A DNA stretch of 50,268 bases from a virus (Duplodnaviria > Heunggongvirae > Uroviricota > Caudoviricetes), in IMG/VR virus record IMGVR_UViG_3300007734_000754, positions 64,001-114,268 of that record; one strand, given 5' to 3'. The stretch's first letter is position 1. Every line of letters starts with the position of its first letter. The notes beneath the pieces are model-generated. The model did no database searches, was not told the DNA's origin, and worked only from the letters and a program-made list of their open reading frames with translations. Positions 33,407-41,418 of this stretch are shown in pieces. The translations under genes were made by a program, and so were the position numbers.

Positions 33407-35533
33407 ATGGCAGAATCAATTATCTCTCCAGGAGTATACACAAGAGAAAATGATACCTCTTACATTACACCAGCACCTATTGCAGCCGGAGCAGCCTTTA
33501 TTGGACCAACAGTAAAAGGACCAGATAACCAGCCTCTTATCGTTACATCTTATAGTGACTATGTAAGAAAGTTTGGTGAAACAGTAATTTCAGGATCTAA
33601 ACAATACGAATTTCTTACCTCAGTAGCAGTTAAAAACTACTTTCAAAATGGTGGACAAACAGCGTTAGTAACAAGAGTTGTATCTGGATCATATACTAGA
33701 GCAACTAACACTAACCTATTTGGAACGACAGGTGTAAATAAAGCAGTAGGTTCAGGAACAATAGTAGCTACAGCAATAGATGGACAAAGATACGATATAG
33801 TATACGGATCAAATACCTACGCTTTTATTGCAAGCTCAACCCCAATACCAGTAGATATACCAGGTGCTAAAGTATTTTTCTTTTCAACAGGTTCTTCTGC
33901 AGCTATGACAGTACAGAACTTAGTTCAAGAAATTAATACGCAAACTGCATATGTACCATTTAGTGCATCATATAATGGAGCAGTCTTTGCACTATCAGGA
34001 TCTACAGCAGGAACAACCTACAACGGAGTTACTTTTTTAACAGGATCTATTTTAGGAGAAGCACCAGCTTCACTACTATTTACTTTAGCTGGAGGTACAA
34101 CAGGTCCATCAGCAACATCTCCATTCGCAATTCAAACACTAGGAAAAGGTGTAATATATAACAACTCTACAGGGTCAGGTGATGCAGGAGTTCAAAACTC
34201 AGATGGTTCACTAGTATCAGGTTCAATGGATAACATTAGATGGGAAATTTCAAATGTTAATAGTTCATTAGGTACTTTTACTTTAGTTATCAGACAAGGT
34301 GATGATAGTACTAATAATAAGACAATATTAGAAACATTTAATAACCTATCATTAGATCCAAACTCAGATAATTATATTGAGCAAGTAATTGGTAATCAAT
34401 ATATAGCAGTAGGTACAGATGGATCAACATCTTTTAACTACCCAGTAGGTGAATTTCCAAACGGATCAAATTATATAAGAGTATCTGCAGTAAACACTCC
34501 GACACTAAATTATTTAGCAAACGACGGTATAACAGTTAATACAGACAGTGCGGGAGTATCTTTTACAACATACCTACCTACAGCATCATCTGGTTCATTT
34601 TATGGAGCAGCTGGTTCAGTAGGAGCACCTGCAACGTTTTTTGGAGCTATTACAACAACAACAACAACTGCACAAGGAATACTGGCATCTAATTATACAA
34701 CAGCAATATCATTACTTTCAAATAGAGACGATTACCAATTCAATATTATATCAGCACCAGGTTTAATCTACAAAAATAGTAACTTTACTTCTACAGTAAG
34801 TTCTCTTATCTCTTTAGCAGAACAAAGAGGAGATTGTATTGCAGTAGTAGATTTAGTAGCACAGGGAGATACAGTAACAAGTGTAACAGCACAAGCAACT
34901 ACGTTGAATAGTTCATACGCAGCAACTTACTGGCCTTGGTTACAAATTAAATCAGCTACAGGTAGAAACGAATGGACTCCAGCAGGAGCAGTAATTCCAG
35001 GAGTTTATGCATTTACAGATGCATCTTCAGCACCATGGTTTGCACCAGCAGGTTTAATAAGAGGTGGAATTGGTGGAGTAATTCAAGCAGAAAGAAAATT
35101 AACTAAAGGTGACAGAGATACTCTTTATGCAGCTAAAGTTAATCCAATTGCTACATTCCCAGGTTCAGGTATTTCAATTATGGGACAAAAGACATTACAA
35201 TCAAAAGCATCAGCTTTAGATAGAGTAAATGTAAGAAGACTACTAATTGCACTTAAGAAATTTATTGGTGATCAAGCTAGAAATTTAGTATTCGAACAAA
35301 ATACTGGAACAACTAGAACTAAGTTCTTATCAATAGTAACTCCATACTTAGAGTCAGTAGTACAAAGACAAGGTCTTTATGCTTTTAAAGTAGTAATGGA
35401 CGATACTAACAACACAGCAGACGTAATTGACAGAAATCAATTAGTAGGTCAAATTCTTATTCAACCAACTAAAACAGTTGAGTATGTAGTATTAGACTTT
35501 ACAATTGAACCAACTGGAGCAACATTTGCATAA
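33407..35533 (+). CDS. gp18: Contractile tail sheath protein (T4 gp18-like)
   Basis: SPGVYTREND, GPTVKGP, WFAPAG..RGG, VNPIATFPG, DRVNVRRL, FEQN. Confidence 0.95.
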   Translation: MAESIISPGVYTRENDTSYITPAPIAAGAAFIGPTVKGPDNQPLIVTSYSDYVRKFGETVISGSKQYEFLTSVAVKNYFQNGGQTALVTRVVSGSYTRATNTNLFGTTGVNKAVGSGTIVATAIDGQRYDIVYGSNTYAFIASSTPIPVDIPGAKVFFFSTGSSAAMTVQNLVQEINTQTAYVPFSASYNGAVFALSGSTAGTTYNGVTFLTGSILGEAPASLLFTLAGGTTGPSATSPFAIQTLGKGVIYNNSTGSGDAGVQNSDGSLVSGSMDNIRWEISNVNSSLGTFTLVIRQGDDSTNNKTILETFNNLSLDPNSDNYIEQVIGNQYIAVGTDGSTSFNYPVGEFPNGSNYIRVSAVNTPTLNYLANDGITVNTDSAGVSFTTYLPTASSGSFYGAAGSVGAPATFFGAITTTTTTAQGILASNYTTAISLLSNRDDYQFNIISAPGLIYKNSNFTSTVSSLISLAEQRGDCIAVVDLVAQGDTVTSVTAQATTLNSSYAATYWPWLQIKSATGRNEWTPAGAVIPGVYAFTDASSAPWFAPAGLIRGGIGGVIQAERKLTKGDRDTLYAAKVNPIATFPGSGISIMGQKTLQSKASALDRVNVRRLLIALKKFIGDQARNLVFEQNTGTTRTKFLSIVTPYLESVVQRQGLYAFKVVMDDTNNTADVIDRNQLVGQILIQPTKTVEYVVLDFTIEPTGATFA

Positions 35534-35575: not shown

Positions 35576-36064
35576 ATGGCAATATTAGATCCAATAGAAA
35601 TGCTCCAAACCGCATTTGAACCAATGGTTCAACATAGGTTTAAGATGAAAATAGATGGAATCCCAGCATTCATGGTTAAGAATGTAAAAGCTCCTAACTT
35701 TACAGATAGTATGATTAAACTTGATCATATTAACTCATATAGAAAAATTAGAGGTAAAAGAGAATGGCAAGATATGGACATGGTTCTATATTCTCCAATC
35801 ACACCTTCAGGTGCTCAAGCAGTAATGGAATGGGCACGTTTAGAGTATGAGTCAGTAACAGGTAGAGCTGGTTACTCCGATTTCTACAAAAAAGACCTTT
35901 ACTTAGAGGTTTTAGGACCAGTAGGGGACGTTGTAGGAGAGTGGATTATCAAAGGAGCATTCTTAGTAAAAGGAGACTTTGGACAGTTCGACTGGACTTC
36001 AAATGACGGATTAGTAGATATAGCAATTACAGTTGCAATGGATTATTGCATCTTGAATTACTAA
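35576..36064 (+). CDS. gp19: Tail tube protein (T4 gp19-like)
   Basis: Follows sheath; FEPM..HRF, EW.IKGAF, I.IT.A.DY; 162 aa. Confidence 0.9.
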   Translation: MAILDPIEMLQTAFEPMVQHRFKMKIDGIPAFMVKNVKAPNFTDSMIKLDHINSYRKIRGKREWQDMDMVLYSPITPSGAQAVMEWARLEYESVTGRAGYSDFYKKDLYLEVLGPVGDVVGEWIIKGAFLVKGDFGQFDWTSNDGLVDIAITVAMDYCILNY

Positions 36065-36085: not shown

Positions 36086-36112
36086 AAGCCTGGCAGTCGT
36101 CAGGCTTTGTTG
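36086..36112 (+). terminator. Intrinsic terminator after the tube gene
   Basis: AAGCCTG-GCAGTCGT-CAGGCTT followed by TGTTGTTTT. Confidence 0.75.
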
Positions 36113-36172: not shown

Positions 36173-36916
36173 ATGGAATCAAAATTTAGTTTACCTACCG
36201 AAATGGTAGAACTTCCTTCAAAAGGATTACTTTATCCAAAAGACTCGCCTTTATCATCAGGAAAAATTGAAATGAAGTATATGACTGCCAAAGAGGAAGA
36301 TATACTTACAAACATTAACTTCATTAAAAACGGAACAGTTATTGATAAATTGCTTCAGTCTTTAATTATTACTCCAATTGACTATAACGAATTATTAGTA
36401 GGAGATAAGAACGCTATAATGGTAGCTGCTCGTATTCTTGCTTATGGAAAAGATTACCAAATAGAGTATAGAGGAGAGCCTGTAACGATTGACTTATCTG
36501 CTTTAGAGAATAAAGAAATAGATGAGACTAACTACACTAAAGGCAAAAATGAATTTACATTTCAATTACCAAATACCGATAACGTAGTTACGTTTAAAGT
36601 ACTTACTCACGGAGATGAAAAATTAATAGATCAAGAAGTAAAAGGATTACAAAGAATTCATAAAGATAACCTAGCTGAAGTAACAACCAGATTAAAGAGA
36701 ATGATCACATCAGTAAATGGGTTAGCAGATACAAAAGATATCAGAGAGTTTATTGATAAGTATTTACTGTCAAAAGATGCAAGAGCATTAAGAGAGGAGT
36801 ATAGTAAAGTAAGCCCAGATGTAGACCTTAAGTTCATATATACAGACGGAAATGGCGATGAGGAGGTAGCCGACCTGCCTATAGGCATTAGCTTTTTTTG
36901 GCCTGACTCCAAGTAG
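36173..36916 (+). CDS. Tail/baseplate-hub assembly chaperone (T4 gp26-like)
   Basis: VELPSKG..YP, YMTAKEEDIL; located between tube and tape measure; ends SFFWPDSK followed by TAG TAA. Confidence 0.75.
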   Translation: MESKFSLPTEMVELPSKGLLYPKDSPLSSGKIEMKYMTAKEEDILTNINFIKNGTVIDKLLQSLIITPIDYNELLVGDKNAIMVAARILAYGKDYQIEYRGEPVTIDLSALENKEIDETNYTKGKNEFTFQLPNTDNVVTFKVLTHGDEKLIDQEVKGLQRIHKDNLAEVTTRLKRMITSVNGLADTKDIREFIDKYLLSKDARALREEYSKVSPDVDLKFIYTDGNGDEEVADLPIGISFFWPDSK

Positions 36917-37139
36917 TAAGGTAGGTATTTATACACAACTACATGAAATTTGTTTTCATGGAAGAGGTGGTTATAGTTGGTGGGATGTTTACCATATGCC
37001 GATTGGTATTAGAAATTTTGTATTTAATAGAATAAGAGAATTTCATCAAGAAAAAGAACCAACCGATGTAAAACAAAGCCCTATCATAAATCGACCAGAT
37101 ATACCAACTACTTATACAACAAGAGCCTCTAGAAAGTAG
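36894..37139 (+). CDS. Start-less ORF in the +1 frame of the chaperone gene; putative frameshift extension (gp51/G-T-like)
   Basis: Reads FFGLTPSSKVGIYTQLHEICFHGRGGYSWWDVYHMPIGIRNFVFNRIREFHQEK...ASRK*; frame closed by TAG at 36882; T7 run at 36893-36899. Confidence 0.75.
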   Translation, partial: FFGLTPSSKVGIYTQLHEICFHGRGGYSWWDVYHMPIGIRNFVFNRIREFHQEKEPTDVKQSPIINRPDIPTTYTTRASRK

Positions 37140-37147
37140 AGGCTTTT
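37123..37147 (+). terminator. Hairpin terminator overlapping the stop of the frameshift ORF
   Basis: AGCCTCTA-GAAAG-TAGAGGCT followed by TTT; TATTTATA follows at 37150. Confidence 0.7.
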
Positions 37148-37173
37148 ACTATTTATAATTATATAATACATAC

Positions 37174-39563: not shown

Positions 39564-39809
39564 ATGGGACTTTTAGATTTATTAACATCACAGGGATCAC
39601 CGATGAGCTACAATGGAGCAATACCGCCACCAAGCCCTTTCAATAGCCCACAATCAACCCTACACTACCAGTACTCTATTACAGGTAATCCATCAAATGT
39701 TAACGTACCACCACCATCTCACTTGGACTTAGATGCAACAATACCTCCAATTTCAACAAATCCAGGATCTGCACAATTGCTACCTTATACAGCACACCAA
39801 CCAGGATAA
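39564..39809 (+). CDS. Small Pro-rich hypothetical protein of the tail/baseplate module
   Basis: 81 aa; MGLLDL start resembles the next gene (MGLIDL). Confidence 0.55.
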   Translation: MGLLDLLTSQGSPMSYNGAIPPPSPFNSPQSTLHYQYSITGNPSNVNVPPPSHLDLDATIPPISTNPGSAQLLPYTAHQPG

Positions 39810-39822
39810 AAAGTAAAAGGAC

Positions 39823-41418
39823 ATGGGACTAATTGATCTCCAAACAAACTTAAAAAGTCTTACGTATGGAGGGAACGGACCCTACGTAACTAAGAACATA
39901 AATAATCCACCCTCTGACAATCGTTTTGTACATGAGGCAACTAGTCGTATAGACGATGTTAGTCGAATTGCTCAAATGCTAGTTGATAAGCCGGGGATAA
40001 AATACTTATTTCATAACACTATTCTTAGAGCAGCTACGTTGCAGTATAAGATAGATGATCAAAAAAATAAAGTAAGCCCTAAGCCAGTATCAATTTTACA
40101 GGAAGCAAAACGTGCTGGTATAGATACTATAGCAACAGTAGCCAGTACACTAGCACAAGTAGCTATTGACGGAACTGGAGTACATTTTGTAAAAGGATTT
40201 GGTAGAGGAATAAAACCCTATATACCAAGTACAGACTTAAATGGATTATCCCTTGCAGGAACTAATCTTGTAATTAATGTAAGAACACAACCATCAGAAC
40301 TAGTAGACATCGCTCCAGATGGAACTATATCAATTGCTAGAAAATCAGATAGTGCAGTTGAAGATGATGAAAATTTTTACAGAGCAGGGCAGTATAAAAT
40401 TCGAGTAAATAACGACTATAATGATCAGTACGAATACCAGTATACTCAAAGAATAAGTCCTACAAAAAATGGAAGCATTAGAAAAGAGACTCGTGTTAGG
40501 TTAGGAGATCAAGGAGCTAGAGTAGATAGTTTTAAAACAGCTAATATTTACTGGTCAGGATCAATAGGGATAGACGGAAAACCAACCTACGATGAAGTAG
40601 ATAAAATAAATGTACTCCCAGCACAGACAGGAAAAGTAGAGGCCGGTACAGGTACCTATGAACAAAAAGTATTACTTGGAGGTCAAACTATAGGAAGAGA
40701 TTTTGCAAAATTTAGGTTTCATATAATAACACCAGAAGAAGAAAAGGTATTATATTTTAGAGCATTTATAGAGTCATTTACGGACAACTATGCTGGAGCT
40801 TGGAATGATGTTAAGTACTTAGGTAGGGGTGAAGCTTTTTACGTGTATAGTGGCTTTAGTAGAAAAATTTCCGTATCTTTTAAAATAGCAGCTGCAACAA
40901 GAACAGAGCTTTTACCACTTTATCAAAAAATGATATATTTAGCTTCTTCAACAGCTCCTACATATGGAAGTGCAGGGCAGTTTATGAGAGGTACTATAGC
41001 AAAAATGACAATCGGAGATTATGTATATGAATTACCGGGAATAATAAATAGTGTGACCTATGCATGGTCTACGGAATATCCATGGGAGATAGCTGTTGAT
41101 GAACCAGAAGGTGGTGGAGATAAGCTTATGCAGGAATTACCTGTAGTATTAGATTGTAATATAGAGTTTACTCCAATTCATAACTTTACTCCAACAGCAG
41201 GATATAATAAGTATATAACAACAGGAATAAATGATGCACAAGCTACAGCATTCTTTGATAACGATATACAGACAACAAAAACAGCAGCAAATCCAGCAGA
41301 TGATATTATAACTCCATCACCAAATACAATGAAAGGAACAAATGATGTTACAATTCTTGGAGGAACAGCAGGTAAAGCAGCAAATAGTTTTGGAAGATAT
41401 TTAGAAAGACCGGTATAG
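39823..41418 (+). CDS. Baseplate / tail-tube initiator-like protein
   Basis: C-terminal tube-fold-like segment FRAFIESFTDNY...W..VKYLGR.E.FY.YSGF.R.IS.SF.I; follows the TMP. Confidence 0.65.
   Translation: MGLIDLQTNLKSLTYGGNGPYVTKNINNPPSDNRFVHEATSRIDDVSRIAQMLVDKPGIKYLFHNTILRAATLQYKIDDQKNKVSPKPVSILQEAKRAGIDTIATVASTLAQVAIDGTGVHFVKGFGRGIKPYIPSTDLNGLSLAGTNLVINVRTQPSELVDIAPDGTISIARKSDSAVEDDENFYRAGQYKIRVNNDYNDQYEYQYTQRISPTKNGSIRKETRVRLGDQGARVDSFKTANIYWSGSIGIDGKPTYDEVDKINVLPAQTGKVEAGTGTYEQKVLLGGQTIGRDFAKFRFHIITPEEEKVLYFRAFIESFTDNYAGAWNDVKYLGRGEAFYVYSGFSRKISVSFKIAAATRTELLPLYQKMIYLASSTAPTYGSAGQFMRGTIAKMTIGDYVYELPGIINSVTYAWSTEYPWEIAVDEPEGGGDKLMQELPVVLDCNIEFTPIHNFTPTAGYNKYITTGINDAQATAFFDNDIQTTKTAANPADDIITPSPNTMKGTNDVTILGGTAGKAANSFGRYLERPV

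Follow-up and report, generated by a model that had tools for sequence, protein, structure and literature searches.

A strongly conserved recoding site appears near the 3' end of a gp26-like gene from an uncultured, Flavobacterium-type phage, and it is highly probable that a +1 ribosomal frameshift at this site yields two versions of a tail or hub assembly chaperone, one resembling gp26 and the other gp51. Comparison with related loci indicates that the recoding site is real, and a single gene here very probably covers the task that T4 seems to share out between genes 26 and 51. The stretch analysed (hereafter the window, 50,268 nucleotides) was taken from IMG/VR record IMGVR_UViG_3300007734_000754 (positions 64,001 to 114,268), which comprises 114 kb at 33% G+C and is estimated to be ~70% complete.

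Gene order and the two reading frames

The gene is located between the tail tube and tape measure genes in the window, a placement also seen in the annotation of the phages immuto, HSE3 and LIS04. The features of the locus are as follows.

33407–35533, + strand: tail sheath gene (708-aa ORF; the homologous gene in phage immuto is annotated as tail sheath)
35576–36064, + strand: tail tube gene (phrog_4542 tail tube protein, E 8e-19; Pfam Phage_T4_gp19, E 2e-5)
36086–36107, + strand: terminator-like hairpin 3' of the tube gene
36173–36916, + strand: ORF1, the short form of 247 aa, a gp26-like PF12322 protein (Pfam PF12322, phrog_150)
36885–36916, + strand: zone open in both the 0 and +1 frames, to which the shift is confined (0-frame stop 36914–36916)
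36893–36907, + strand: nearly invariant 15-nt block TTTTTTTGGCCTGAC with the shift site (near-zero column entropy, 72 distinct sequences)
36893–36895 or 36896–36898, + strand: candidate P-site codons
36894–37139, + strand: +1-frame extension, 81 codons plus TAG (C-terminal tail of the predicted 321-aa long form)
37121–37147, + strand: terminator-like hairpin enclosing the +1-frame stop codon
37174–39519, + strand: tape measure gene, 781 aa (immuto, HSE3 and LIS04 have a gene annotated as tail tape measure protein at the homologous position)

ORF1 matched Pfam PF12322 T4_baseplate (gp26/gp51) at 29.3 bits, with a cut-off of 24.5 (E 8.4e-7, profile positions 9–200 of 219), and was recovered at 27.9 bits when the six-frame-translated genome record was searched with PF12322; it also matched the baseplate hub family phrog_150 (E 1.6e-11). 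The own sequence of the tape measure gene gave only a sub-threshold match to tape_meas_nterm. Between this gene and a 531-codon gene at 39823 lies an 81-codon proline-rich ORF (39564–39809).

The 3' end of ORF1 reads AGC TTT TTT TGG CCT GAC TCC AAG TAG and contains a run of seven T residues (T7, 36893–36899). The -1 frame meets a TGA at 36904–36906, while the +1 frame is closed by TAG at 36882–36884 and then open from 36885 to the TAG at 37137–37139. The initial annotation of the window had given the positions of the T7 run, the -1 TGA, the +1 TAG and the +1 end, all of which were correct on re-reading. It had also described the +1 frame as running for about 80 codons with no early ATG and with a terminator at its end, in good agreement with the 81 codons counted from the Phe-Phe at 36894, the position of the earliest ATG, GTG or TTG (the ATG at 36996, extension codon 35) and the hairpin at 37121–37147. 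With ~7.5% stops among random codons at 33% G+C, the chance of 81 open codons is ~0.002 by our own arithmetic; as this probability is low and the open frame is kept in 83 of 83 related loci, it is beyond chance.

Since the hairpin at 37121–37147 encloses the +1 stop, the unit ends with the extension and not at the 0-frame stop. Terminator-like hairpins within 36086–36107 and 37121–37159 flank the two-product gene, which may form a transcription unit of its own; a promoter-like TAGAAA-18-TATAAT, just 5' of the tape measure gene, overlaps the second hairpin.

Conservation of both frames across related loci

The locus set consisted of 80 loci retrieved from IMG/VR, with ORF1 homologues 59–71% identical, together with Flavobacterium phage immuto, Microcystis phage Mel-JY01, a 484-kb uncultured phage and the window. 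A homologue of the extension was found in the +1 frame relative to the PF12322 gene in every locus reaching far enough (83/83). The nearest cultured relative was immuto (75% DNA identity), in which both frames are present around the site AGC TTT CTT TGG CCT, which holds no homopolymer; in Mel-JY01 and the 484-kb phage the extension homologue likewise lies in +1.

The block conforms to the nearly invariant consensus TTT YTN TGG CCT GAC, and a 0-frame stop follows one to three codons 3' of it in every aligned sequence. Among 72 distinct sequences, the site reads TTT TTT TGG in 54, TTT CTT TGG in 15, and TTT CTA TGG, TTT CTT TAC and TTT CTA TTC in one each. The initial annotation had advised aligning related phages to look for a conserved T run; the T7 is uninterrupted in 54/72 and broken by TTT CTT or TTT CTA in 18/72.

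The column entropy of the 72 distinct sequences changes register across the block: on its 5' side the variable position is the 0-frame wobble, and from +15 it is the +1-frame wobble, a pattern starting before the 0-frame stop. The block encodes Phe-(Phe/Leu)-aromatic-Pro-Asp in the 0 frame and Phe-(Phe/Tyr)-Gly-Leu-Thr in the +1 frame. Its invariance is as expected from such dual coding, in which every wobble position of one frame coincides with a constrained position of the other. Several relatives have a +1 frame that becomes open just 2 nt 5' of the first TTT, and the interval available for the shift is AAC TTT YTN TGG CCT NNN, bounded by +1 stops and 0-frame stops.

No ATG, GTG or TTG occurs in the +1 frame before +45 in 27 of 75 distinct loci, the window among them, and no start position for the extension is conserved among the 75; the common 'start' at +103 is the Met of a conserved MPIW motif. 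Given the 27 loci with no start and the absence of a conserved start position among the 75, separate initiation cannot explain the extension. Of the features that the initial annotation had proposed to look for, the lack of a start was seen in these 27 of 75 loci and the FFW/FFG-type dual coding in the 15-nt block of the aligned relatives. Taken as a comparison of sequences, the data demonstrate a two-frame architecture, a bounded shift interval and purifying selection on both frames. The central proposal of that annotation, a +1 frameshift joining the chaperone to a start-less ORF, appears well supported by the +1 placement in 83/83 loci, the entropy switch and the missing starts.

At the protein level, ORF1 had more than 8000 homologues among 5.8 billion proteins, nearly all of 244–249 aa. 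When the extension profile was compared with longer proteins, only three in-frame fusions were found, representing either real fusions or T6 errors, two with the junction FFGLT and one with VFGLT, the last of which carries a deletion. A representative library contained 196 extension homologues, and searches of the extension alone against Pfam, PHROGs and NCBIfam returned no match. In four further proteins (P0371, P0372, P0373 and P0374) the extension domain is fused to unrelated sequence, in one case with UDP-glucose dehydrogenase Pfam domains; these are probably chimeric contigs or run-on gene calls and not real fusions.

Proposed mechanism of the +1 shift

In the proposed mechanism, most ribosomes would stay in frame and stop at 36914–36916, giving the 247-residue short form ending in SFFWPDSK. 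A minority would slip +1 with tRNA-Phe in the P site on the U run, the tRNA re-pairing from UUU to UUU in the window and from UUU to UUC in relatives, and would run on to 37139, so that the long form would have 321 residues and SFFGLTPSSK at its junction. These nested products would have the roles of lambda gpG and gpGT, which T4 would split between gene 26 (short) and gene 51 (long). We infer the ribosomal nature of the shift, the slipping codon, the relative amounts of the two products and their function as chaperones.

A P-site +1 slip on UUU_Y is the best reading of the site. A 0-frame UUU followed by a pyrimidine is found within the doubly open interval in 83/83 loci, as well as in HSE3 (TTT C) and LIS04 (TTT T), and a slip of tRNA-Phe from the first UUU onto UUU or UUC is the sole re-pairing possible in all 83 loci. 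Alternatively, with UGG occupying the A site, the second codon, YUU (UUU or CUU), could slip onto UUU, an arrangement that fits 69/72 distinct sequences and resembles the prfB site CUU_UGA, but fits the CUA variants poorly. From the sequence alone, either the first UUU or YUU would be suitable as the P-site codon. The initial annotation had suggested slippage of a P-site tRNA-Phe with TGG in the A site, or else a -2 shift; the tRNA and the +1 direction have stood, whereas TGG in the A site suits 69 of the 72 sequences and the -2 variant appears unlikely. None of the possible A-site codons (UUU/CUU, or UGG) stands out as a slow one. In bacteria, UUU_Ynn has been called 'especially prone to +1 frameshifting', and the shift of YopN-TyeA has been proposed to take place there; the +1 site of influenza virus is UCC_UUU_CGU (PMC5009743).

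Folding of the RNA at 36893–36992 and 36900–36950 gave z-scores of 0.33 and -0.16, respectively, with no stable structure, and RNAalifold found zero consensus pairs 5' or 3' of the site across 73 loci. No tRNA genes were found in the 114-kb record, and immuto (Ser, Glu, Gln) and Mel-JY01 (Leu) carry only ordinary tRNAs, with no odd anticodon loop; a phage-encoded tRNA that reads four bases is thus unsupported. A GAGGAGG motif ~30 nt 5' of the site was considered as a +1 stimulator and rejected, the distance being too great; the likely hosts make little use of Shine-Dalgarno pairing. No stimulator emerged from these analyses of RNA structure and tRNAs; candidates for this role are the UGG codon and a conserved stretch of the nascent peptide, Asp/Glu-x-Pro-Ile-Gly-x-x-Phe-Phe.

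Alternative explanations

Two of the alternatives would operate on the T run itself. A -2 ribosomal frameshift, with the P-site tRNA moving back two bases, would land in the same frame as +1 and produce SFFFGLT, with one extra Phe; the T7 run permits the UUU to UUU re-pairing needed for this, and phage Mu reportedly uses a -2 shift in its tail chaperone gene. We nevertheless find it quite unlikely here, as a slip on the second codon would put tRNA-Leu on UUC in the 18/72 sequences with TTT CTT or TTT CTA, and two in-frame fusions show FFG and not FFFG. More unlikely still is transcriptional slippage, in which RNA polymerase omits one U on the T7 run and part of the mRNA pool comes to encode the fusion. 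Bacteria and phages offer known cases of slippage at T/A runs (PMC5009743), and 54/72 distinct sequences offer the uninterrupted T7, but the architecture persists with TTTCTTT, with TTTCTAT and with the TTC TTT CGT of HSE3. Seven bases are, moreover, a short run for efficient slippage. The interrupted-run variants thus disfavor both of these explanations.

The remaining two alternatives dispense with recoding. If the locus held two separate genes, the downstream frame would have to start non-canonically or by termination-reinitiation. Gene callers do place small stand-alone ORFs at the extension, and 44/75 loci have an upstream ATG, GTG or TTG in +1, mostly a TTG from 0-frame Ile-Gly codons. 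However, the start positions are not conserved and 27/75 loci have none before +45; the first start in the window, at codon 35, lies past the conserved FFGLT...GGYSW core; the +1 frame is already under selection 5' of the 0-frame stop; and the conserved Met at +103 belongs to the MPIW motif. This explanation is even less probable than slippage by the polymerase. Least credible, with a negligible probability, is a homopolymer sequencing error concealing a T6 run and a single 321-codon gene, despite the error-prone nature of T7 runs and the three fused forms in databases. Independent assemblies with 84–96% identity all give 247–248 aa, both frames are kept where the run is interrupted, the 0-frame tail is itself conserved (aromatic-Pro-Asp, with a stop one to three codons on), and ~3 fusions stand against >8000 short forms. 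For the architecture as such, an error is ruled out by the 83/83 loci, the interrupted runs, the lengths of the homologues and the scarcity of fusions.

Relation to T4 gp26 and gp51

T4 gp26 (208 aa) and gp51 (249 aa) each match PF12322 end to end. Along the 282 positions of the phrog_150 profile, gp26 ends at 235 and gp51 reaches 280, while ORF1 of the window, HSE3 and LIS04 ends at 233–236; the shift therefore sits where gp26 stops and the gp51-specific tail, labelled PF28602 Gp51_C in database matches, begins. By this measure the short form would be gp26-like and the long form gp51-like. T4 has two PF12322 genes, and one each was counted in HSE3, in LIS04 and in the ~70%-complete record studied here. 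The initial annotation had envisaged a gp26-gp51-like fusion, which needs correction in that the long form is not gp26 fused to gp51, both of these being full-length PF12322 proteins; the extension would correspond only to the ~48-residue tail by which gp51 exceeds gp26. We regard it as likely that the extension is the equivalent of this tail.

The AlphaFold model of a fused relative (P0084; pLDDT 92.7, pTM 0.84) shows the extension as high-confidence helices packed on the N-domain, and a gp51 homologue was modelled with similar scores (pLDDT 92.1, pTM 0.87). After the last beta hairpin, both modelled tails consist of a short helix, a helix of 14–17 residues, a 5-residue helix and a long helix (H241-244, H248-264, H271-275 and H279-317 in P0084; H196-203, H208-221, H226-230 and H234-249 in the gp51 homologue), and the helix-loop-helix PDB chains 8fje_B and 6g6j_A are matched by both. 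An HHpred-type comparison of the extension with gp51, as the initial annotation had advised, gave a mixed result: hhalign aligned the extension collinearly with the C-terminal tail of gp51, but weakly (P about 0.02–0.04), with 11 of 300 permuted-column decoys scoring as high and another stretch of gp51 scoring higher. BLASTP of the fused protein with gp51 and gp26 found nothing significant, and hhalign of the full-length profiles (E 0.26) left the known-homologous N-domains unaligned, which indicates that these narrow profile alignments have little power. Using language-model features, the nearest named cluster with a Pfam family carries PF28602 Gp51_C (rank 4, score 0.81), a result to be taken as a lead only.

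ORF1 (36173–36913) is without any cysteine, and paired Cys motifs are retained in T4 gp26, gp51, the 484-kb uncultured phage and HSE3. The paired motifs (CxxC-type) are probably a zinc ribbon, a metal site apparently lost in the Flavobacterium-type clade.

Resemblance to tail assembly chaperones of solved structure

Sequence searches, and Foldseek against the PDB, found no solved structure. A structure search was also made against ~48,000 PDB representatives, in which Z values in the range 3.8–5.1 can, according to the tool's own warning, reflect a common arrangement. The best three matches to the N-terminal 100 residues of P0084 were 3fgx_B (Z 5.1, rmsd 4.7, 85 aligned), 3klu_A (YqbN; Z 4.8, rmsd 5.5, 89 aligned) and 2ob9_B (the HK97 tail assembly chaperone; Z 4.1, rmsd 5.4, 82 aligned). 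We take YqbN to be an XkdN-type chaperone of a PBSX-like element. The N-domain of the gp51-like model matched 2ob9_B (Z 3.9, rmsd 3.0, 64 aligned) and 3fgx_B (Z 3.8, rmsd 2.9, 64 aligned) at ranks 29 and 42, among few N-domain matches. The modelled N-domain would thus resemble solved tail assembly chaperones, though these matches are suggestive only.

Wider distribution and annotation

The order sheath, tube, PF12322 gene, +1 extension and tape measure also occurs in Bacillus phage HSE3, Listeria phage LIS04 and Bacillus phage SP-15. The sites in these Firmicutes phages include TTC TTT CGT (HSE3) and TTT TTT AGT (LIS04), and an HMM built from the extension family of the window matched the HSE3 extension (E 1e-6). 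As the same layout is found in Firmicutes phages, the arrangement is older than the divergence of these widely differing groups of phages. We lean towards a broader reading in which the UUU_Y +1 shift would be an ancient fixed trait of PF12322 across phages of Bacteroidota, cyanobacteria and Firmicutes, the PF12322 proteins would be the tail assembly chaperones of this large set of phages with contractile tails, and in T4 a duplication would have given the short and the long form a gene each (26 and 51). Under this reading the shift would need no RNA structure and would perhaps be helped by the nascent peptide or the UGG codon.

The extension has been annotated in various ways in GenBank. In LIS04 (L091:2708-2939) it is missing, and a 230-bp gap holds no CDS; in immuto (L001:2526-2749) and HSE3 (L090:2723-2916) it is truncated to a short ORF from an internal ATG; and in Mel-JY01 (L002:2489-2725) it is given as an overlapping ORF from an arbitrary upstream start. 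The present finding corrects the annotation of the extension in these four phages.

Comparison with known systems

The tail assembly chaperone frameshift that yields gpG and gpGT in lambda is conserved (Levin 1993; Xu, Hendrix, Duda 2004; reviewed in PMC5009743), and the G-T frameshift has been described as conserved in long-tailed phages 'except T4' (PMC5009743). For T4, Table 2 of Leiman et al. 2010 (PMC3004832) places gp26 and gp51 among the hub assembly chaperones; gp51 is an essential hub-assembly protein, needed for assembly and absent from the virion, with a function given as unknown (PMC3004832). We found no report of a frameshift in the gp26/gp51 (PF12322) family in the searchable literature. 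A one-gene, two-product version of gp26/gp51 at the chaperone position makes both the 'except T4' statement and the role of gp51 testable, with the prediction that the tape measure protein is the client of gp26 and gp51 as chaperones and that the ratio between the two is important. The locus family also adds a large natural set of +1 sites with neither stop codon nor RNA structure, carried by thousands of environmental phages, and its two main site variants are useful for studying how the shift is tuned.

Like lambda G/GT, the gene studied here would give nested products with a common N-terminus, the long form arising by a shift near the 3' end, for which the evidence in the window is comparative; in both systems the fused form is almost never encoded in frame. 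The suggestion in the initial annotation that gp26 and gp51 are functionally the G/G-T pair is upheld as an analogy by the comparative data, namely gene position and two nested frames. The systems differ in that lambda shifts -1 on an X XXY YYZ heptamer, whereas the shift here would be +1 in all loci, with the -1 frame closed at 36904–36906, and in that the proteins belong to different families and the fold likeness to solved chaperones is weak (Z 4.1–5.1). There is a precedent in another protein family for the replacement of a G/GT frameshift by two domain-sharing genes, as T4 26 and 51 appear to be; it is the reverse of the situation in the window, where the frameshift is kept.

The site itself is akin to other UUU_Y sites (UUU_Ynn in E. 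coli, YopN-TyeA in Yersinia and PA-X in influenza A; PMC5009743), in which tRNA-Phe re-pairs one base forward and neither a stop codon nor RNA structure is needed. Unlike these, the site in the window is fixed in a family of phage morphogenesis genes and embedded in a 15-nt dual-coding block.

With T4 gp26 and gp51, the products share the Pfam family PF12322, a short form ending where gp26 does (gp51 adding ~45 profile positions) and predicted tail helices in the same order, although the similarity of the extension to the gp51 tail is not significant from sequence alone. T4 gene 26 is also annotated with an internal in-frame product, 26' (95 aa; L084:5803-6090), so T4 also makes nested PF12322-family products, by another route. 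In contrast to the window, T4 has two divergently transcribed genes with no frameshift, neither of which adjoins the tube gene, and its two proteins carry Cys pairs where the protein of the window has no cysteines.
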